Positions 15,481 through 25,398 of a stretch of 64,000 nucleotides of DNA are shown here, one piece after another (position 1 is the first letter of the stretch; each line of letters begins with the position of its first letter). The stretch comes from Candidatus Multivoradales bacterium (GTDB taxonomy: Bacteria > Acidobacteriota > Thermoanaerobaculia > Multivoradales > Multivoraceae), in contig CBDCWI010000002.1 in NCBI GenBank assembly GCA_965223325.1, positions 712,351-776,350 of the forward strand, written 5' to 3'. Made by a program: the position numbers and the translations under genes. Below the pieces are notes generated by a model, which did not search any database, was not told the origin of the DNA, and was given only the letters and a program-made list of their open reading frames with translations.

Positions 15481-17766
15481 ATGCAGCGGCCACCAGCTGA
15501 GAACGCTCGTCGCCATTCCCCCATGCTTCCCTCCGCTCTTCGATGGGCGCGTTCAGGTCTCGAGTTGACCTGCGCCGCCGCTACCACCCTCGGCCTGCTT
15601 GCCGCCTTGTGTTCACCCGTCTCCGCTGCCGGCCTCGGCAGCCGGCAGAGTCCAATGAGCGCGCCGCCGAGCATCGCCGCTCTGCACACAGAAGACGACC
15701 TGCGCGTCGACGGTGTCTTTGACGAAGCCGCCTGGAGCACCGCAATGGCCGGCGGTGGCTTTGTCCAGCACGATCCCTACGACGGTGTACCCGCCACCGA
15801 GGATACCGAGATCCGCGTGCTGTACACGTCCTCGACGCTCTACGTCGCGGTCATCGCCCACGACTCTAAGCCGGAAGCAATCACGGCGCGCGAAATGTCG
15901 CGCGACGGGGCACTGCGGCGCGACGACAGCATCATCCTTTTACTCGACACGTTCCACGACGGCCGCAATGCCTACTTCTTCGAAACCAATCCCAACGGCG
16001 CCCGCGGTGATGCTCTGATCACTGACGAAGGTCGCGACGTGAACTTCGAGTGGGACGGCATCTGGGCGGTGGCATCACGCACCACTGCCACCGGCTGGCA
16101 GGCCGAGTTCGCGATTCCCTTCTCTACCCTGCGCTACGAACCCGGCCTCGAAACCTGGGGTCTCCAGGTGTCACGCCAGGTTCAGCGCTTGCGCGAGGAG
16201 AGCTTCTGGGCACCGGCGCCGCGCGAGGCCGACGTCTTCCGCATGTCACTGGCCGGAGACCTGACGGGTATCGACTTGCGCTCGCCCTCGCGACAGCTCG
16301 ATGTCAAGCCGTACATCGTTGCCGCGGCTCGCCAGGACGAGGAAACGGACACCTCGAGCGAAGACGCCGATCTCGGCCTCGACATCAAATGGGGAATCAC
16401 CCGAGGACTCACCCTCGATCTGACCTACAACACCGACTTCGCGGAGGTCGAAGTCGACGACCAGCGCGTCAACCTGACGCGTTTCTCCCTCTTCTTTCCC
16501 GAGAAGCGTGAGTTCTTCCTCGAGAACGCCGGCATCTTCGAGTTTGGCCAGCGCAGCGGTCGCCGGAGCTTTGGTTCACCACTGCTCAAGATCTTCTTCT
16601 CTCGCCGTATCGGTCTGGTCGACGGCGAACGGGTTCCCATCGAGTGGGGTACCCGACTCACCGGCCGAATGGGCGAGTGGAGTCTCGGGGTACTGGACGT
16701 ACAGACCGACAGTCTGGTGACCGAGGAGCTCGATATCTTCGGCGAAACCAACTTCGGCGTCGTGCGAGTCAAGCGCAACCTCGGTGAGCGCTCGAGTATT
16801 GGTGCGATCTACACCCGTCGCTCCGAACGTGGCGCCGCAGACAACCAGGTCTACGGCATCGACGCCGACTGGAACCCCACCGATCGCATCAATGTCAACG
16901 GTTTCTTCGCCCAGAGCGACGACGACGACCTCCGCACCAGCGACGACACCGCGGTTGGTGCGAAGGCGAGCTTCGAGGGCCGTGAGCTCACTGCTGGGCT
17001 CGAGGTGCAACAGATCGAGGGTGACTTCAACCCCGAGGTGGGCTTTCTCTTGCGCGAAGACATCAGGCGCTACAAACCGCAGATCGAGTGGAACCCGCGG
17101 ATCGAGAAAGCCGGCATCAGGTCCCTCTCTTTCGAGATCCAATCCGAGTACGTCGAGAAGATCGACGGACCGCTCGAGTCTCACAACCTAGAACTCACAT
17201 ACTTCGGCGTACGCACCTTCAAGAACGACGGCTTCCGCCTGCGCATCGAGCGTGACGACGAGCGCCTCTTCGAAGAGTTCGAGATCTCGGACGGAGTCAT
17301 CATTGCGCCCGGCCGCTACACGTCCGATCCGCGGTTCGGCATCTTCGGTTTCACCAGCGAGGCGCGGCTCTTTTCCATGCGCGGAGGCCTCGAGCGTGGT
17401 GGCTTCCTGAGCGGTGACCGCGACAGCGTGTTCCTGCGTCTCGCCGCCCGGCCTTCGAAGTTCTTCCGCGCCTCCACTGGCTACTCCTACAACATGGTGG
17501 ATCTTCCAGAAGGCCAGTTCAGCACCCACGTCGTCAACCAACGGTTCGACGTGTCGTTCACGCCCGACCTCTTGTGGAACAGTACCGTGCAGTGGAACGA
17601 TGCGAACGACACGCTGGGAATCAACCTGCGCTTGAACTGGATCTATCGCCCAGGAGCCGACCTGTTCGTCGTCTACAACCAGACCTGGGACACCCCAGCC
17701 GGTGCCACCACCACAACGCGTGATCGCGCCTTCCTGGTGAAGTTCACCTATCTGTTCCGCGGCTAG
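15481..17766 (+). CDS. CBM9-like sugar-binding plus DUF5916 outer-membrane beta-barrel protein
   Basis: Signal peptide, VDGVFDEAAW, DTFHDGRNAYFFETNPNG, LDLTYNTDFAEVEVD..VNLTRFSLFFPEKREFFLE, C-terminal KFTYLF. The start may be 15523. Confidence 0.85.
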   Translation: MQRPPAENARRHSPMLPSALRWARSGLELTCAAATTLGLLAALCSPVSAAGLGSRQSPMSAPPSIAALHTEDDLRVDGVFDEAAWSTAMAGGGFVQHDPYDGVPATEDTEIRVLYTSSTLYVAVIAHDSKPEAITAREMSRDGALRRDDSIILLLDTFHDGRNAYFFETNPNGARGDALITDEGRDVNFEWDGIWAVASRTTATGWQAEFAIPFSTLRYEPGLETWGLQVSRQVQRLREESFWAPAPREADVFRMSLAGDLTGIDLRSPSRQLDVKPYIVAAARQDEETDTSSEDADLGLDIKWGITRGLTLDLTYNTDFAEVEVDDQRVNLTRFSLFFPEKREFFLENAGIFEFGQRSGRRSFGSPLLKIFFSRRIGLVDGERVPIEWGTRLTGRMGEWSLGVLDVQTDSLVTEELDIFGETNFGVVRVKRNLGERSSIGAIYTRRSERGAADNQVYGIDADWNPTDRINVNGFFAQSDDDDLRTSDDTAVGAKASFEGRELTAGLEVQQIEGDFNPEVGFLLREDIRRYKPQIEWNPRIEKAGIRSLSFEIQSEYVEKIDGPLESHNLELTYFGVRTFKNDGFRLRIERDDERLFEEFEISDGVIIAPGRYTSDPRFGIFGFTSEARLFSMRGGLERGGFLSGDRDSVFLRLAARPSKFFRASTGYSYNMVDLPEGQFSTHVVNQRFDVSFTPDLLWNSTVQWNDANDTLGINLRLNWIYRPGADLFVVYNQTWDTPAGATTTTRDRAFLVKFTYLFRG

Positions 17767-18560
17767 CCACTCAGTACCGCGGAGAGAAAGGCGTCGCCGC
17801 CCTCGGTGTGTACGTTGTGGCCAACGCCCGCGAGCACCACCAGGCGCGCGTTCGGAAAGTAGCGGCGAGCCGCCGCAAAGCCCTCGTCGGTGATGTAGTC
17901 CGAGTCACCACCGGCGATGAACTGACATGGCCCCAGGTAGCGATCGTCATCGTCGAGGGGGTTCTCGAAGATCGCCGCCGGTCTCTCTTTCAGAATCTCG
18001 AGTGGAATCGACCACCGGTAGCCGTCTCCCGAGCGCGCCAGGTTGGTGAGGAGAAACAGCCGCGTGGCACGGTCTGGAATCGCCTCCAGTAGCTGTTCCT
18101 CAGCATCGCTGCGGGTTCTGACCTTGGTCAGATCGACGGCCAGGAGAGCGTCGAGGATCTCGGTACCCACCACATAGTCCACCGGTGCAATGTCGAGCAC
18201 CGAGAGGTCAGCGATGCGTTCCCCGACGTCAGAGGCCAGCCGCATGGCGGTTTTGCCACCCATCGAATGCCCAATCAGACGCACTCTTTCGAGGCCCGAC
18301 CCATCGAGGTAGCGGAGCACGTCAGCAGCCATTGCCCGGTAGTCGTGTGGCCGGGCGTGCGGAGAGCGACCGTGGTTTCGCAGGTCGAGAACATGGACCG
18401 GACCGCCGGAAGCCAGCTTGCGCGCCACCGCAACCCAGCTCCGCGACGAGCCGTAGAGCCCGTGCAGCACGACGATGGGCAGGGCGTCGGCGGGCGCATC
18501 GGGCGCCGCCTCGAAGGTTCGCCCGACCAGCTCGACCGGAACGGAACCAGCCTCAGTCAC
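17763..18560 (-). CDS. Alpha/beta-fold esterase (YbfF/ABHD11-like)
   Basis: LHGLYGS, DLRNHGRSPH, GHSMGGK nucleophile and GHNVH motifs. The GTG start overlaps the SDR stop. Confidence 0.9.
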   Translation of the reverse strand: MTEAGSVPVELVGRTFEAAPDAPADALPIVVLHGLYGSSRSWVAVARKLASGGPVHVLDLRNHGRSPHARPHDYRAMAADVLRYLDGSGLERVRLIGHSMGGKTAMRLASDVGERIADLSVLDIAPVDYVVGTEILDALLAVDLTKVRTRSDAEEQLLEAIPDRATRLFLLTNLARSGDGYRWSIPLEILKERPAAIFENPLDDDDRYLGPCQFIAGGDSDYITDEGFAAARRYFPNARLVVLAGVGHNVHTEGGDAFLSAVLSG

Positions 18561-19384
18561 TGGCTCATGTGCCAGCCGCCGTTGGGCGATAGCACCTGGC
18601 CGGTGACGAACCGGGCCTCTTCGGAGGCCAGATAGACGGCTGCCCAGGCGATGTCGTCGGCGTCGCCGAAGCGGAGCATGGGCGTCTGGGCGGCGATCAG
18701 GGCGCGGGCGTCTTTGAGCACCCGAGTCATGTCGGTATCGATCCAGCCTGGCGCGATGGCATTGACCCGAATACCGCGGCTCGCCGTTTCGCGCGCCACC
18801 GCTCGGGTAAAGCCGAGAATCGCCGCCTTGGCTGCACAGTAGTGACTCGACCCACTGCCGCCCGCCGTCCCCATGATCGAGCCGAGATTGATGACCGAAC
18901 CACTGCCCGCCGGAGCCATCACCCGTAGCGCCGCCCGCGTGCAGTAGAACGTCCCGTTGACATGCACATCGAACATGTGGAGCCACTCGTCGTCAGTGAG
19001 CTCGATCGTTCTGTCGTCATGGTCGGTGATGTGGCCCAGAGTGGCAACCTGCTCGGCACGCTGCATCATCGCCTGGAGCCGCTCCTCGACCCACCGCTCG
19101 CTCTTGTTCTCGAGACCGTTGATCCCGGCGTTGTTGACCAGAATGTCGAGGCCGTTCCAGTGAGACGCGGCTTCCTCGATCGCCCGGTCGACCCCCGCTC
19201 GATCGGTGACGTCGAGGGTTTGCGCCACTCCGTCGATCTCCTGGGCAACACGCGCGGCACCCTCGCCGTCCCGGTCAGTGACCACGACCCGTGCACCCTC
19301 CTCGGCGAAGCGCCGGGCAATCGCCTCTCCCAGGCCGCGCGCGGCCCCCGTGATCAGGGCTGTCTTGCCGAACAGACGATCCAT
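18557..19384 (-). CDS. SDR-family oxidoreductase (FabG-like)
   Basis: TGAARGLG, LVNNAGI, YCAAK and RVNAIAPG motifs. Confidence 0.95.
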   Translation of the reverse strand: MDRLFGKTALITGAARGLGEAIARRFAEEGARVVVTDRDGEGAARVAQEIDGVAQTLDVTDRAGVDRAIEEAASHWNGLDILVNNAGINGLENKSERWVEERLQAMMQRAEQVATLGHITDHDDRTIELTDDEWLHMFDVHVNGTFYCTRAALRVMAPAGSGSVINLGSIMGTAGGSGSSHYCAAKAAILGFTRAVARETASRGIRVNAIAPGWIDTDMTRVLKDARALIAAQTPMLRFGDADDIAWAAVYLASEEARFVTGQVLSPNGGWHMSQ

Positions 19385-19396
19385 CCTCTTCTTCTC

Positions 19397-20965
19397 CTAC
19401 CGCGGTTCGTTGAGTAGCGCCTCGGCGCCTCCCAGACCCGGCAACCCCGTGACCCCCCCACCGGGGTGGACGCCTGCGCCGCAGAAGTAGAGGCCCTCGA
19501 AGGGTGAGCTGAAATGACCGGCGCCACGCCACGGCCGCAAGACGAAGGAACGCTCGAGCACGACTTCCCCGTGATCGATGTGGCCGCCGCTCACTCCCCA
19601 GGTGTCCTGCCATTCACCGGGGAGGTGGAGTCGGCGATGCTCGATCAGATCGACGACTCCAGGAGCACTCTCCTCGAGCCGTTTCAACAACCGACCGACG
19701 ACCTGACGCGCATCGACTTCTGCATCGTGAGGAACGTGTTGCGCAACGTAGCTGAGAAGGTAGCGATCGTGCGGCCCTGGGGCCGCGACCTTCTCGACGG
19801 TGGCCGTGCCGTCGAGAGTCTTCGACTCGCGACCACGACGGGCGTCGATCGCCGCGAGCTCGAGGTCGGTCGTCGTCCCGGCGATGACGATCGACCCGGT
19901 CAGTTCGCTCGAACTCGACTGGCCGCGAAACCGTGGTCGCGCCCGCAGGAGCAAGTCGAGCCGAACGACGGTGCCATGCGGTTTAGTGGCACGTAGGCGC
20001 CGGCCAACGTCAATCGGCAGGTAGCGATCGCCAACCAGGCGCTCGAGAGTCATGAAGGGATCGGTTGAGGCCAACACAGATTGGGTTTCGACGAACTGTG
20101 CCGGCGAGTCGGGAGGCGCACCGAGTGGACGCACCTCGACACCGCGAACGCGACCGTCGCCGAGCACGATGCGGTCGACCCGTGAAGCGAGAGCGATGCG
20201 ACCTCCGCGTCGTTCGACCGCCGCCACCAGGCCAGCGACGAAATCTGCCATCCCGCCCGCCGGTCGGCGCACCGGCGCCAGGCCTCGAGCGCTGGTCCCC
20301 CAGCTGCGATAGAAGAAAGGGTAGCTCGAACCGGGCGAGAACGGCCCAGTGCGCGTGCCGAGGAGTGCCCGCATGGTGAGCATTCCCTGCAGCCTGGGGC
20401 TCTCGAACCACTCCCCGAGAAGTGATGCCAGGGGCATCGACAGCGCGCGCAGAAGCGCTGGCGCCTGGGCCAGCCTCCCGGTTGCCTGCCAGCGGTCGAT
20501 CTCGGCTCCGGGACCACCGGCGCGCAAGAGAGGCTCGAGCTCACCACAGCGCTCCCCAACCCAGTGAACGAAGTCGGGCCAGCGCGCCGCATCGCGTTGA
20601 TGGTGCCGAGCGATCGCCGCCGCCGTTTGGGCGACATCGGGATAGAGCGCGAGCGCCGGGCCCCTACGGTCTTCGGGAGCGAAGGCGACCACCGGCGCGT
20701 CGACCATCACCGGACCGCCCCCATCTGCCCCGGGAAAGCCGATGAGCTCGCTTACGTCGTCGCGCAGAAGGGAGGTGTCGGAGGCGCCGCGCGGTGCCAT
20801 GACGACATCGGAGGCGCCAGGGAAGGCAGCATGGACGCCGGTCATTCCGCCCGCGGTCTCCGCTTGCTCGATCACCAGCACCGAGCGCCCCTCATCGAGG
20901 ACGCGTGTGGCAGCAATCAGGCCGTTGTGGCCAGCGCCAATGACGACGCAGTCGACGCGCCTCAT
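19397..20965 (-). CDS. Phytoene-dehydrogenase-like FAD oxidoreductase (divergent paralog)
   Basis: VVIGAGHNGL, GGHIDHGE and LYFCGAGVHPGGGVTGLPG motifs; ATGA overlap with the upstream paralog. Confidence 0.85.
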   Translation of the reverse strand: MRRVDCVVIGAGHNGLIAATRVLDEGRSVLVIEQAETAGGMTGVHAAFPGASDVVMAPRGASDTSLLRDDVSELIGFPGADGGGPVMVDAPVVAFAPEDRRGPALALYPDVAQTAAAIARHHQRDAARWPDFVHWVGERCGELEPLLRAGGPGAEIDRWQATGRLAQAPALLRALSMPLASLLGEWFESPRLQGMLTMRALLGTRTGPFSPGSSYPFFYRSWGTSARGLAPVRRPAGGMADFVAGLVAAVERRGGRIALASRVDRIVLGDGRVRGVEVRPLGAPPDSPAQFVETQSVLASTDPFMTLERLVGDRYLPIDVGRRLRATKPHGTVVRLDLLLRARPRFRGQSSSSELTGSIVIAGTTTDLELAAIDARRGRESKTLDGTATVEKVAAPGPHDRYLLSYVAQHVPHDAEVDARQVVGRLLKRLEESAPGVVDLIEHRRLHLPGEWQDTWGVSGGHIDHGEVVLERSFVLRPWRGAGHFSSPFEGLYFCGAGVHPGGGVTGLPGLGGAEALLNEPR

Positions 20966-22638
20966 GGCGAGGCTCCCGCTGCATCGCCTCTTGCGAGCGA
21001 GGCCAGGACCCGGCGGGCCGCGAGCCGTCCCGGACCGCCCGAGATTCCGCCGCCCGGATGAGACCCCGAGCCGCACAGCCAGTAGCCATCCAACGGCGTC
21101 TGGAAACCCGAGAGGTCGCTCCCCGGCCGTAGGGTGAACAGCTGCGAGAGTCGGATCTCGCCGTGAAAGATGTTGCCACCGGGAATACCGATCTCCTGCT
21201 CGACGTCGTCGGGCGTGAGCACCTGCCGGTCAAGAGTGATTTCGTCGAGGTTGGTCACGTACTGGCGCAGGACCGCCATCACAGCGTCACCTAGAGCGTC
21301 GCGCTGGTCGGACCAGGTGCCGTGGGCGAGCTGGTACGGCGCGTACTGAACGAAGCACGACATGACGTGTCCGCCAGGCGGCGCCATGCCCGGATCGATG
21401 ACCGATGGCACCACGAGGTCGAGGAACGGTTCGCGCGAAAAGTTCCCGGCGCGCGCATCGGCGTAGGCACGTTCGATGTAGTCGACACTGGGGGCAATAC
21501 TCGTGCCACCAGCGAGATGCGCGTGTGGATCCGGTCTCACCCTGAAGCGCGGCAGATCGCCGAGCGACAGGTTGACCTTGGCCGAGCATCCTTCGGTCTG
21601 CCAACTGTTCGCAGCTGCGACGGTCTCAGGCGGGAGCGCCCCGTGGGGAATGAGCCTGTCGATACTGAGCTGCGGCGCAAGGCTCGAGAGCACGACGTCG
21701 GCGTCGATCTCCTCGCCATCGTCGAGCACCACCCCGTCGACCCGCCCATCCGCCAGGCGCAGCTCCGAGACGGTCGCCGCGGTTCGAATGACGGCCCCAG
21801 CCTCGCGGGCAGCGAGCGAAATCGCCCGCGCGACCGCCCCAGTCCCCCCACACGGGAAACCCCACGCGCGGTACTCGCCATCGATCTCGCCCATGTAGTG
21901 ATGCAACAAAACGTAGGCCGAGCCCGGGGTGCGCGGTGAAAGGAACGAACCGATGATGCTCGATGTCGAAAGTGCGGCCTTGAGTGCATCGGTCTCGAAC
22001 CACTCATCGAGCAGATCCGCGGCGCTACCGACCATCATCTGCGCCAGCATGTCGCAGTGGTCACGGGGGGCACTCGCGAAGTGACCTGCGACTTCCGCCC
22101 AGGCCGTGGCAGGGTCACTATCTTGGGAAGCGGCGCGGCTCACCGGCGGCGGCGTCACGCGCTGCAGAGCATGCACCAACTGTGCGACCTGACTCATCAA
22201 GAGCTTGAAGCGTGAGTAGGCCTCGGCGTCCTTCTTCGAGAAGCGGGCGATGTTGTGGTAGGTGCGTGCGGGACACGCTTCGCGATAGAGGAAGCGACCG
22301 TCGGGGAGTGGGTTGAACGTGCTCTCGAGGGGAACGATCACCAGACCGTGTCGCACCAGTTCCAATTCCTGAACCACCTCGTGGTGCAGAAGGCTCACCA
22401 GATACGAGTAGCGACTGTGGAGGAAGGTGCCGTTCTTGCCCACCACCGAAACCTCACCGGTGCGCGTTGCGCCGCCAATGATCTCGTCGCGCTCCAGCAC
22501 CGTGACCCGATGCCCGGCGCGGGCGAGATAGGCCGCCGCCACCAGGCCGTTGTGGCCCGCACCGATGACCACCGCACGGAGGCGCGTACCCGCGCTGCCT
22601 TTTCCATCGCGGCCCTTTCGCTCGCGCACGAGGGTCAC
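20962..22638 (-). CDS. Phytoene-dehydrogenase-like / PYROXD2-like FAD oxidoreductase
   Basis: VIGAGHNGLVAAAYLARAG, SRYSYLVSLL, AYVLLHHYMG, WGFPCGGTG, GGNIFHGE and WLCGSGSHPGGG motifs; GTG start at 22638. Confidence 0.9.
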   Translation of the reverse strand: MTLVRERKGRDGKGSAGTRLRAVVIGAGHNGLVAAAYLARAGHRVTVLERDEIIGGATRTGEVSVVGKNGTFLHSRYSYLVSLLHHEVVQELELVRHGLVIVPLESTFNPLPDGRFLYREACPARTYHNIARFSKKDAEAYSRFKLLMSQVAQLVHALQRVTPPPVSRAASQDSDPATAWAEVAGHFASAPRDHCDMLAQMMVGSAADLLDEWFETDALKAALSTSSIIGSFLSPRTPGSAYVLLHHYMGEIDGEYRAWGFPCGGTGAVARAISLAAREAGAVIRTAATVSELRLADGRVDGVVLDDGEEIDADVVLSSLAPQLSIDRLIPHGALPPETVAAANSWQTEGCSAKVNLSLGDLPRFRVRPDPHAHLAGGTSIAPSVDYIERAYADARAGNFSREPFLDLVVPSVIDPGMAPPGGHVMSCFVQYAPYQLAHGTWSDQRDALGDAVMAVLRQYVTNLDEITLDRQVLTPDDVEQEIGIPGGNIFHGEIRLSQLFTLRPGSDLSGFQTPLDGYWLCGSGSHPGGGISGGPGRLAARRVLASLARGDAAGASP

Positions 22639-23900
22639 CGCCTTCTCCCTTTCGGGCGCCGCTTGCGAACTGCGCGCTTGCGCTTGGGGTTGAAGAACGG
22701 CAACCCGACGATGCGCGCCGGAGCCAGCCGGCGCTCGTACTCCACGGTCATCTCGACCTCGACCGTCGAGCCCAGCTGCGCGAAGTCGCTGTCGATAGAC
22801 GCCAGTGCGATCTGCTTGCGAATCAACGGCGAGAAGACGTGACTGGTGGCCTGCCCCACCTGCCGAGAACCGCAGTAGACCGGCACCGGGGTGCGGCAGG
22901 CTGGGTGCCCAGGGGTATCGGGACGCACTCCATGCACCCCGTAGACTTCTTCGAGGTTCGCCCACTCGATCACCAGGCCAACGTAAGAGAGGTCGGTGTG
23001 GGGTGCAGCATCGTTGGCGGCACGCTTCCCAAAAGACGAGTTGGCAAAGCGTTTCTCGAGCGCAGGGCGGCCGAGAAAGTCGTTGTCGGGCACCATCTCG
23101 ACCGTCCAGCCCATGCCCACTTCGTGAGGCAACACCCGACGCGCCAGCGGCCAAGCCAGGTCGGCAGGGATCCAGTCGACACCGATCAACGGCAGACCGG
23201 CTTCGATACGAGCGACATCGAGCGCTTCGAGACCGGCCGGCAGGAGCGCGTGGCCTCTACCGGAATCGTAAAGCGCATCCCACACCATCGTCGCGAGCTC
23301 AGCCTGGACCACGAGCTCGTAGCCCAGGTCGCCGGTGAACCCCGTGCGCGTGATCGTGACCGGCGCTCCCCCGACACGAGCGGAAGCGGCACTGAAGTAG
23401 CGCAGCCGATCGAGGTCTGCCCCGGTGGTTACGGCGCTCAGAATCGCCCGTGACCGGGGGCCCTGAAGCGCCAGCATCGCGTACCGCTCCGAGCGCTCGC
23501 TGACCTCGACGTCGAAGCCGCGCGCGCAGTCAGAGAGCCAGCGCATCACCGGCTCCGCCGCCGTCAGCCGAAAGGTCTCGTCGTCGAGGCACACCAGATT
23601 GCCGTCCTGGAGCAGGTAGCCGTCGTCATCGAGCCAGGCCGAATAGGCCACCCTGCCAGGCGCGAGCTTCGAGATATCGCGGGTGAGGAATCGGTTGAGG
23701 GCAAAGCGCGCCTCGGGCCCGGTGACTTCGAGCTTGAACATCGGCGACATATCGAACAGCGCCGCACTGGTTCGGATCGCCCAGTACTCCCGCAGATGAC
23801 TCTGCAGATAGGAAGCGGCCGCCGAGTAGCCGGCCCAGTCATTCCAACGCTGGGCAACCGAGAGACGGGAACTGCGACTGTGGAGAGCGGTTGGACGCAC
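22635..23900 (-). CDS. GcvT-like aminomethyltransferase / folate-dependent demethylase
   Basis: EYWAIRTSAALFDMS, LDDDG...DG, TRTGFTGDLGYEL, GLEALDVARIEAG and PFFNPKRKR motifs. Confidence 0.9.
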   Translation of the reverse strand: MRPTALHSRSSRLSVAQRWNDWAGYSAAASYLQSHLREYWAIRTSAALFDMSPMFKLEVTGPEARFALNRFLTRDISKLAPGRVAYSAWLDDDGYLLQDGNLVCLDDETFRLTAAEPVMRWLSDCARGFDVEVSERSERYAMLALQGPRSRAILSAVTTGADLDRLRYFSAASARVGGAPVTITRTGFTGDLGYELVVQAELATMVWDALYDSGRGHALLPAGLEALDVARIEAGLPLIGVDWIPADLAWPLARRVLPHEVGMGWTVEMVPDNDFLGRPALEKRFANSSFGKRAANDAAPHTDLSYVGLVIEWANLEEVYGVHGVRPDTPGHPACRTPVPVYCGSRQVGQATSHVFSPLIRKQIALASIDSDFAQLGSTVEVEMTVEYERRLAPARIVGLPFFNPKRKRAVRKRRPKGRRR

Positions 23901-23902
23901 GA

Positions 23903-24283
23903 CTACCCTTTAGAGCGTGGCCGCTCGATCCCGATCATGCGGCCCAGCGGTGACCCGGCGAACAGATGCAAGTGGAGGTGCGGCACTTCCTGGTAGGCGT
24001 TCGGGCCACAGTTCGACAGCACCCGATAGCCCCCGTCGACCACGCCGAGCTGCCGCGCAACCTCGCCCGCGGCGCGCACCCAAGCGGCGATCTCCGCGTC
24101 ACTCGCCCGGGCAGAAAAGTCCTCGAGCGAAACGTACGGACCCTTCGGAATGATCAGCACATGAACAGGCGCCTGGGGGTTGATGTCGCGAAAGGCGAGC
24201 ACGTGCTCGTTCTCGAAGACCTTGTCGCACGGCAGCTCACCACGCAGGATGCGCGCGAAGATGTTGTTGTCGTCGTAGTTCAA
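23903..24283 (-). CDS. HIT-family nucleotide-binding protein (Hint-like)
   Basis: NIFARILRGELP, FRDINPQAPVHVLIIPK and QEVPHLHLH motifs. Confidence 0.95.
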   Translation of the reverse strand: MNYDDNNIFARILRGELPCDKVFENEHVLAFRDINPQAPVHVLIIPKGPYVSLEDFSARASDAEIAAWVRAAGEVARQLGVVDGGYRVLSNCGPNAYQEVPHLHLHLFAGSPLGRMIGIERPRSKG

Positions 24284-24291
24284 GGATTCGC

Positions 24292-25398
24292 CTACCGTCC
24301 GATCACGGTGAGTTCGCGCTCGAAGGTCGTCAAGCTCTCGTTGCCGGTTTCGCCGATCCAGAGATCGTCCTCGATGCGTACGCCGCCAAACCCTTCGAGG
24401 TAGAGCCCGGGCTCGACCGTGATGACCGTACCGACGCCGAGGGGCTGATGGTTACCCTCCATCACCGACGGTGGCTCGTGGATATCGACTCCGAGACCGT
24501 GACCGGTGCGGTGAGTCATGAACGAAGCGAAGCGAGCCTCGTGGAGGCCCGCCTGCGCTCTAGTGTGGACCTCGTGTGCGGTCGCCGTCGCAGAGGCCGC
24601 GGCACATCCCGCGCGGTTGCCCGCCAGGACGGCCTCGTAGACCTCACGCTGGCGATCGGAGGGTTCGCCGCCAACGAAGAACGTGCGCGTGATGTCGCTG
24701 TGATAGCCGTGGTGGGAGGTGCCGAAGTCGATCAGCAGAAAGTCACCGGCCGCCAGCTCGTAGTCTCCTGGTTCCCCGTGCGGCAAGGCGCTCTTCGGCC
24801 CACCGAGCACGATCGGACCGAACGAGATGCCCTCGCCGCCGCCGAGCAGCAGGCAACTGGAGAGCTTGCCCGCAATCGCGCGCTCAGAAGCGCCAACCCG
24901 TACTTCAGCGATCGTTGCCCTGAGGGCCTCTTCGGAGATCGCAATGGCACGGCGGAGCGCCGCGGCCTCTTGCTCGGACTTGGCCATGCGAAGCGGTGAA
25001 ATGATCGGATCGGCCGACTCGAACTGAGCCCCGGTCAGATGACGTGCCAGGACCGAGTACTCCATGTAGCGCATCGCCAGCGGTTCGATGCCGACCCGCT
25101 CCACCGAGTCGAAGCGTGCACAAGCCTGGCGCACCGCGTCTTCGGGACCGTCTTTGTCGTCCCAGGTGAAGATCGCGTCGACCGCTGGAACGGCATCGGA
25201 GAAATTGCCCCGCTCGAGCAGCGGCAACACTGCGACTGGCGGGCCGGTCCCCGGGACCAGCAGTACGAACAGCCGCTCGTGAGAGGTGAATTCGTGGCCA
25301 GCCAGCCAGGTGAACGTCGGCGAGGGGAGGAGCGCCACCAGGTCCAGGCCGGCCGCCTGTATGCCGTCCTGCAGCGCCGTCAATCTGTCGTTAGCCAT
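24292..25398 (-). CDS. Xaa-Pro peptidase (M24B)
   Basis: LIDFG...GYHSDITRTF, HRTGHGLGVDIHE, TVEPGLY and GVRIEDD motifs. Confidence 0.95.
   Translation of the reverse strand: MANDRLTALQDGIQAAGLDLVALLPSPTFTWLAGHEFTSHERLFVLLVPGTGPPVAVLPLLERGNFSDAVPAVDAIFTWDDKDGPEDAVRQACARFDSVERVGIEPLAMRYMEYSVLARHLTGAQFESADPIISPLRMAKSEQEAAALRRAIAISEEALRATIAEVRVGASERAIAGKLSSCLLLGGGEGISFGPIVLGGPKSALPHGEPGDYELAAGDFLLIDFGTSHHGYHSDITRTFFVGGEPSDRQREVYEAVLAGNRAGCAAASATATAHEVHTRAQAGLHEARFASFMTHRTGHGLGVDIHEPPSVMEGNHQPLGVGTVITVEPGLYLEGFGGVRIEDDLWIGETGNESLTTFERELTVIGR

Follow-up and report, generated by a model that had tools for sequence, protein, structure and literature searches.

To our knowledge, flavin demethylases linked to tetrahydrofolate (THF) are known only with flavin domains of the D-amino acid oxidase (DAO) type, as in dimethylglycine oxidase (DMGO), dimethylglycine dehydrogenase (DMGDH), sarcosine dehydrogenase (SARDH) and sarcosine oxidase. 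Another flavoprotein, human PYROXD2, is mitochondrial; its gene has been linked to a metabolic disorder of infants and ranks among the strongest loci for trimethylamine, dimethylamine and dimethyl-lysine metabolites. Demethylation with flavin adenine dinucleotide (FAD) plus THF is established for DMGDH and SARDH and was proposed for LSD1 (PMC4769866), and variants of human PYROXD2 track trimethylamine, dimethylamine and N2-acetyl-N6,N6-dimethyllysine (PMC3169529, PMC13352909). In the literature that we searched, the substrate of PYROXD2 is undefined. Here we analysed a stretch of 64,000 nucleotides from the genome of Candidatus Multivoradales bacterium (Acidobacteriota; contig CBDCWI010000002.1), hereafter the window, in which the interval 19397-23900 contains exactly three genes, all on the minus strand. 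They encode a GcvT-like protein, predicted to bind THF, and two paralogous flavoproteins that we call FAD-A and FAD-B; our literature search returned no report describing this trio. We consider it probable, at roughly 0.6, that the trio is a split, THF-coupled flavin N-demethylase.

The three genes and their conservation

The GTG start of FAD-A (22638-22636) overlaps the TGA stop of the GcvT-like gene (22637-22635), giving GTGA, and the ATG start of FAD-B (20965-20963) overlaps the TGA stop of FAD-A (20964-20962), giving ATGA. A previous reading of this DNA, made from its letters alone (the sequence-only reading), had described the three genes as translationally coupled, and the overlap coordinates confirm it. 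Both internal starts have a GGAG-type ribosome-binding motif 7-9 nt upstream. The longest open frame of FAD-A extends to 23154; since relatives have identical 4-bp overlaps, the short form of 558 residues is likely the gene. We also observed that the C-terminus of the GcvT-like protein is strongly basic, with about 12 Lys/Arg within its last 18 residues (window 22635-22700), and that the first 20 residues of FAD-A are likewise rich in Lys/Arg; orthologues keep only a short PF..P.RK motif in this region.

Using a profile of FAD-A orthologues, we fetched 80 loci from Acidobacteriota, Gemmatimonadota, Chloroflexota, Fidelibacterota, Myxococcota, Thermodesulfobacteriota and one Thermoplasmata archaeon. 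The second paralogue, B, lies directly downstream on the same strand in 76 of them, and a GcvT-like orthologue (38-50% identical) is found at most 8 kb upstream in 71 (19 on the same strand, 52 divergent). Five of the nine loci where this orthologue is missing are cut by contig ends. The trio is strongly conserved across phyla.

We then drew 151 genomes evenly from the phylum of the window, counting as orthologues FAD-A proteins of at least 46% identity and GcvT-like proteins with E below 1e-73. FAD-A is carried by 37 genomes, 36 of which also have the GcvT-like orthologue, while the latter occurs alone in none of the 151. The two genes are within 1.5 kb of each other in 31 genomes, and in the single carrier without a GcvT-like orthologue FAD-A stands at a contig end. 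These tallies include an unpublished genome (G024), and dropping it shifts each count by one.

Among longer proteins, a search for fusions gave seven matches, one a clean A-B fusion and the others a truncated A part followed by a gap. We did not retain the A-B fusions as genuine, because they are singletons or nearly so and look like frameshifted calls in genes that overlap by 4 bp. The long frames joining B to the GcvT-like protein in two genomes (G002, G055) were also set aside, being merely high-GC upstream extensions.

Two departures from the common arrangement were observed. In one close relative (L101:3354-7312) a 671-aa protein matching no family and an N6/N4 DNA methyltransferase stand between FAD-A and FAD-B, an arrangement suggestive of an insertion of mobile or restriction-modification type that has parted the two genes. 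A 2.4-Mb genome of the same phylum (G004) shows a marked expansion, with four GcvT-like genes and nine FAD-A-family genes in two tandem arrays (C1:1212274-1224901 and C1:1624385-1631099).

The folate protein and the two flavoproteins

The GcvT-like protein matches PF01571 with 222.3 bits (threshold 25.6) and PF08669 with 46.5 bits (threshold 25.9), both above gathering. Against the T-protein model TIGR00528 (gcvT) it reaches 161.7 bits, below the cut-off of 235.85. A housekeeping gcvT (374.6 bits) followed by gcvH is found elsewhere in the genome, at C2:2.593 Mb, 1.9 Mb from the trio. By these comparisons the GcvT-like protein is not the housekeeping T-protein of glycine cleavage. Among solved structures it is closest to the folate domains of trimethylamine N-oxide (TMAO) demethylase (Tdm), bacterial T-proteins, dimethylglycine oxidase and sarcosine oxidase, and NCBIfam scoring places it nearest Tdm, GcvT and SoxA and far from DmdA and LigM. 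Residue D99 aligns with Asp552 of dimethylglycine oxidase, and the motifs GYE (E195) and RxEAG (R231) are retained. All three residues align with their counterparts in solved T-proteins, Tdm and DMGO and are conserved at 95% or more across 64 orthologues; given the roles of these positions in DMGO and T-proteins, we take them to be folate-site residues. The protein keeps 92 of the 105 columns that are conserved at that level in the same orthologues.

The GcvT-like proteins of the window's nearest relatives have an N-terminal winged helix of IclR type (PF09339, 50-52 bits; L100:7466-9004, L103:607-2184 and L006:6439-7950), and three other loci (L059, L013, L009) encode a similar helix-turn-helix (HTH) protein just upstream. 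The protein of the window has no HTH. Such IclR-GcvT-like proteins, judged from their domains, may be enzyme-regulator fusions.

FAD-A matches PF01593 with 50.7 bits (threshold 19.8) and also PF13450, and has a GxGxxG motif at residues 26-31; its match to PF01266, the flavin domain of the DAO type, is confined to the N-terminal Rossmann residues 22-59. Over its full length it is 39% identical to bat PYROXD2 (E = 2e-113, residues 22-548). The best relative other than itself shows 60% identity, and in the FastTree tree FAD-A falls in the A clade beside a Vicinamibacteraceae orthologue, from a metagenome-assembled genome that is the nearest among the named genomes. PYROXD2 stands at the base of the group formed by A and B, on a branch that is unsupported with both FastTree and IQ-TREE. 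FAD-A keeps 56 of 67 residues that are invariant in the A clade only; PYROXD2 retains 34 of them, the HH motif included.

A grouping of the flavoproteins with bona fide CrtI or CrtO was also checked. FAD-A scores 116.8 against TIGR02734, the CrtI family (cut-off 238.1), and 258.3 against NF045689, CrtO (cut-off 1000); FAD-B reaches 68.3 and 138, both under the cut-offs. Solved CrtI (4DGK) aligns with FAD-A at 62 bits. The AlphaFold2 model of FAD-A has a mean predicted confidence (pLDDT) of 80.8 and a predicted template-modelling score (pTM) of 0.84. With this model Foldseek returned 4REP and 4DGK at the top and then NicA2 and amine oxidases of the MAO type, all at about 16% identity. FAD-A and FAD-B are the only CrtI-like genes in the genome. 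As the sequence-only reading had noted, no carotenoid gene lies near the trio; the sole gene of the SQS/PSY family in the genome is about 3.7 Mb away, and crtB and crtE are absent from the recurrent neighbour families of the 80 loci. On the evidence of these matches and of the gene context, FAD-A is not a carotenoid enzyme, and we predict that it is likely the catalytic, amine-oxidising subunit.

FAD-B is 28% identical to FAD-A and 26% identical to bat PYROXD2. Its match to PF01593 is marginal (21.3 bits, with no single stretch passing), but residue E33 and the GxGxxG and C-terminal HPGGGxxG motifs are retained. When 1.84 billion representative proteins were searched exhaustively, its best relative, at 39% identity, was the B gene of one locus (L099). 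The stronger divergence of FAD-B that had been seen in the letters thus stands, with 39% for the best relative of FAD-B against 60% for that of FAD-A. Of the 44 residues that both clades keep invariant it has 32, and the A motif is missing.

The same asymmetry holds for the whole family. A and B are sister clades with parallel branching, in which 202 columns are conserved at 95% or more in A and 57 in B, and positions invariant in one clade only number 67 in A and 8 in B. The A-only positions include S78/Y79, Y242, H246/H247, W259/G260 and N489/F491. Over the same 43 loci, A has the highest mean pairwise identity (74%), followed by the GcvT-like protein (63%) and B (51%). Because this gap in conservation and identity holds across loci, greater divergence is, as far as these alignments go, a trait of the whole B family, of which the FAD-B of the window is an extreme case. 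With FastTree, FAD-B was placed outside the B clade, with distant sequences; we discarded this position as long-branch attraction on the basis of a mixture-model tree (IQ-TREE), in which FAD-B stands among the B rows, and of an approximately unbiased (AU) test, in which a single B clade is not rejected (p = 0.20). Because of the conservation asymmetry between A and B, FAD-B most likely assists FAD-A in a structural or electron-handling role rather than being another enzyme of equal specialisation. In view of their obligate co-occurrence and asymmetric conservation, the two may form a heterodimer, as the sequence-only reading proposed.

The operon and its recurrent neighbours

The trio lies inside a run of seven genes on the minus strand, given in run order below.

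Table 1. Genes of the seven-gene run (window coordinates)
Gene product	Coordinates	Strand	Remarks
M24 metallopeptidase, prolidase/aminopeptidase-P type, first gene of run	24292..25398	-	Creatinase_N + Peptidase_M24
HIT-family hydrolase, HinT-like	23903..24283	-	PF01230 85 bits
GcvT-like tetrahydrofolate-binding protein (predicted), P0001	22635..23900	-	421 aa, GTG start
FAD-A, PYROXD2-type flavoprotein, P0002	20962..22638	-	558 aa
FAD-B, fast-evolving FAD-A paralogue, P0003	19397..20965	-	522 aa
Short-chain dehydrogenase/reductase (SDR)	18557..19384	-	PF13561 + PF00106
Alpha/beta-fold hydrolase, esterase-like, last gene of run	17763..18560	-	PF00561 93 bits

The intergenic gaps along this run are 8, 2, -4, -4, 12 and -4 bp; the HIT gene stops 2 bp ahead of the GcvT-like start, and the SDR gene begins 12 bp past FAD-B. 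The run described from the letters alone is real, since no gap exceeds 12 bp and all seven frames have a coding-type GC content at third codon positions (0.75-0.83). A third GTGA overlap, of the GTG start of the alpha/beta hydrolase with the SDR stop, had gone unmentioned. Pfam and NCBIfam agree with every family assignment, and in the M24 peptidase the five metal-ligand positions can be read in the translation. Scans for consensus promoters and terminators around the operon were uninformative in this high-GC region.

The four genes that flank the trio recur in its closest relatives. In the locus with the closest relative of FAD-B (L099) the GcvT-like gene, A, B, an SDR (66% identical) and a hydrolase (51%) follow one another as in the window. 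The locus with the closest relative of FAD-A (L100; 60%) reads M24 (51%), HIT (69%), Rieske oxygenase, GcvT-like, A, B and hydrolase (50%). Because copies flank the trio in both, M24, HIT, SDR and hydrolase are, on this comparison, lineage-specific accessories and not chance neighbours. In the latter locus a PIN/RHH toxin-antitoxin pair (L100:5060-5800) lies between the M24 peptidase and HIT genes, which adjoin in the window.

Other genes recur near the trio in the 80 loci. An amino-acid permease of APC type is present in 22-31 of them, the formyl-THF deformylase PurU in 15, and a Rieske oxygenase, closest among named proteins to the glycine-betaine monooxygenase GbcA, in 19-20 loci from three phyla. 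A threonine-aldolase-like lyase, an S58 peptidase and a methyltransferase are also recurrent. In a genome belonging to the taxonomic order of the window (G119; L092:9136-10098), methylene-THF reductase (MTHFR) comes directly after FAD-B, and two sulfatase-TPR proteins flank the trio. The operon of the window has none of these recurrent neighbours, from the permease, Rieske oxygenase, PurU and MTHFR to the lyase, S58 peptidase and methyltransferase. The genome does encode a homologue of the trio-linked Rieske oxygenase, 45% identical and on another contig (G000:C1:1877660-1882080; L106:7625-12080). We observed that this gene lies directly downstream of a 1083-aa self-sufficient fusion of P450, flavodoxin and FAD/NAD reductase.

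A second and different candidate for a folate-linked oxidase was observed in this genome (G000:C2:3606363-3610327; L005, L095). Its first component is a 930-aa SoxA-like protein whose GcvT domains are preceded by two 2Fe-2S domains (Fer2_4, BFD); next to it lies a SoxB-like gene scoring 406 bits, below the cut-off of 529. A 518-aa open reading frame conserved some 4 kb downstream of FAD-A in 18 Acidobacteriota loci (in one of them at L038:12161-13702) has no match in Pfam, NCBIfam or the Atlas and may not be a real gene.

A putative demethylase and its known counterparts

Taken together, these observations support in part the oxidative-demethylase idea of the sequence-only reading. Of the outcomes that it had named as refuting, neither a lack of conservation of the trio nor a grouping of the flavoproteins with bona fide CrtI or CrtO was found, and the one-carbon (C1) and N-methyl neighbours and the intact folate-site residues fit a THF-coupled demethylase. 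The S-methyl substrate that it had left possible is not the one we favour. In the mechanism that we propose, FAD-A would act on an amine, secondary or tertiary, and oxidise the C-H bond of its N-methyl group, giving an iminium. The GcvT-like protein would hold THF and capture the carbon as 5,10-methylene-THF instead of letting formaldehyde go, as suggested by its folate-site residues and by analogy to dimethylglycine oxidase, sarcosine oxidase and TMAO demethylase. FAD-B would be an obligate, FAD-binding and weakly constrained partner of FAD-A. In many lineages a quaternary amine probably first loses a methyl group to the GbcA-like Rieske oxygenase, and the C1 unit would be passed on by PurU or MTHFR; in this genome the Rieske homologue is unlinked, and the trio instead lies within the M24-HIT-SDR-esterase operon that recurs in its nearest relatives.

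Candidate substrates are N-methyl amino acids of the dimethylglycine or sarcosine type, N-methyl-lysines and small methylamines. An N-methyl substrate is favoured over an S- or O-methyl one because the GcvT-like protein scores nearer its methylene-THF-forming relatives than DmdA and LigM, and because these two enzymes act without a flavoprotein. The PurU, aldolase-like and GbcA-like neighbours recall, by analogy, clusters for betaine, dimethylglycine and sarcosine, and the associations of human PYROXD2 point to dimethyl-lysine derivatives and di- and trimethylamine. Since the genome holds a separate SoxA-like/SoxB-like pair, the trio probably handles another compound or another step than this pair.

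Several points weigh against such a demethylase. The functions of all its members are deduced from sequence and context and not from biochemistry, and our literature search found no paper in which a GcvT-like partner, THF or demethylation is tied to PYROXD2 or to its relatives in bacteria. The best structural matches of FAD-A (4REP, 4DGK) are carotenoid desaturases, with amine oxidases second. Since animals possess PYROXD2 but no B paralogue, the B protein cannot be a universal requirement. Four of the 80 loci, although their flanks are complete, and one family of the phylum sample lack an adjacent GcvT-like gene. No gene of the genome passes the PurU cut-off, and a Rieske gene is missing from the operon. 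Finally, the search among longer proteins, a weak one, found no natural fusion of a GcvT domain with such a flavoprotein.

One alternative is that FAD-A and FAD-B are both catalytic and act as sequential demethylases sharing the GcvT-like protein, each removing one methyl group, for instance the first from a dimethyl compound and the second from the monomethyl product to give the free amine. The mammalian paralogues DMGDH and SARDH act likewise, A and B are almost always together with their FAD-binding motifs kept, and a neighbouring Rieske oxygenase could remove the first methyl of a quaternary amine, so that three steps would account for three methyls. We nevertheless regard it as unlikely, given that B has 8 clade-specific invariants as against 67 in A, shows no conserved substitute for the A motif and has a much higher rate of evolution than A and the GcvT-like protein, an unusual pattern for an enzyme whose substrate is fixed. 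Even less probable, in our view, is a chemistry other than demethylation, be it desaturation, isomerisation or saturation of a lipid or isoprenoid as by CrtI, CRTISO or RetSat, or another C-N or C-C oxidation, with a GcvT-like protein unrelated to C1 capture. CrtO and the crtI family are indeed the best NCBIfam matches, carotenoid desaturases the top structures, and the local SDR and esterase would also suit lipid chemistry. However, the scores are far under the cut-offs (258 against 1000; 117 against 238), the pair are the genome's only CrtI-like genes and have no carotenoid genes nearby, and the near-perfect co-occurrence with a folate-binding protein that has an invariant Asp, together with the PurU and MTHFR neighbours, would be left unexplained.

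We give the least credence to a GcvT-like protein that is mainly a sensor or regulator binding folate or the substrate, the flavoproteins oxidising the amine and releasing free formaldehyde or another product. The winged helices fused to it in three nearest relatives and the HTH genes just upstream in three other loci are in line with this idea, but the protein of the window has no such domain, its catalytic-type residues are invariant in 64 orthologues, and its translational coupling to FAD-A suggests stoichiometric subunits. Moreover, enzyme-regulator fusions such as PutA keep their catalytic role, and therefore the HTH fusions are no argument against catalysis.

If the trio is indeed a split THF-coupled N-demethylase, it would be a second, independently assembled THF-linked flavin demethylase, with a known chemistry on another flavoprotein family and in a split layout of three subunits. 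The trio occurs widely in phyla of soils and the sea (Acidobacteriota, Gemmatimonadota, Chloroflexota, Marinimicrobia and some archaea), and it would therefore bear on the turnover of methylated nitrogen compounds. It would also give PYROXD2 a testable function. We put just short of even odds on a more far-reaching proposal, in which the module is the prokaryotic prototype of a hitherto unnoticed class of PYROXD2-based folate-coupled N-demethylases, human PYROXD2 is by extension an oxidative N-demethylase of dimethyl-lysine derivatives or compounds of the di- or trimethylamine type, and FAD-B is a pseudo-enzyme subunit that scaffolds FAD-A and channels the iminium to the GcvT-like protein. The window adds to the family a B protein, weakly constrained everywhere, in an extreme form, and a sub-lineage with conserved accessory genes, in whose nearest relatives the folate protein is fused to a DNA-binding domain of IclR type.

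Among known systems, CrtI and CrtO have the overall fold of FAD-A and are among its best Foldseek and NCBIfam matches; the trio differs from them by scores far below the cut-offs, an identity of 16%, a context free of carotenoid genes and a constant folate-binding partner. LSD1/KDM1A is also of PF01593 type, demethylates mono- and dimethyl-lysine via an iminium, and folate was proposed to scavenge the carbon (PMC4769866). It differs in acting on histone tails, in its SWIRM and tower domains and in having no dedicated partner of GcvT fold, and only the fold is common with FAD-A. Mammalian PYROXD2 has 39% identity to FAD-A over its full length, about half (34 of 67) of the A-specific residues and, in humans, a genetic tie to trimethylamine, dimethylamine and dimethyl-lysine derivatives, but a B paralogue is absent and a GcvT-like partner is not known.

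Heterotetrameric sarcosine oxidase (SoxABDG; 2GAG, 1VRQ) and N-methylglutamate dehydrogenase are, as the trio is proposed to be, multi-subunit THF-linked N-demethylases, with the folate site in the GcvT-like part of one subunit and the flavins in another. Their genes often share operons with PurU. The operon of the window differs from that of sarcosine oxidase in having no subunits of SoxB, SoxD or SoxG type (17 bits with the soxG model). DMGO (PDB 1PJ5), DMGDH and SARDH resemble the proposed system in joining flavin-dependent N-methyl oxidation to a GcvT-fold domain that traps the carbon as 5,10-methylene-THF (PMC4769866), and the GcvT-like protein of the window aligns with the folate domain of DMGO, the Asp552 position included. 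Whereas in these enzymes a flavin domain of DAO type (PF01266) is fused to the folate domain in one chain, the window has a flavoprotein of the PYROXD2/CrtI-amine-oxidase type, in two paralogous copies, and three separate polypeptides.

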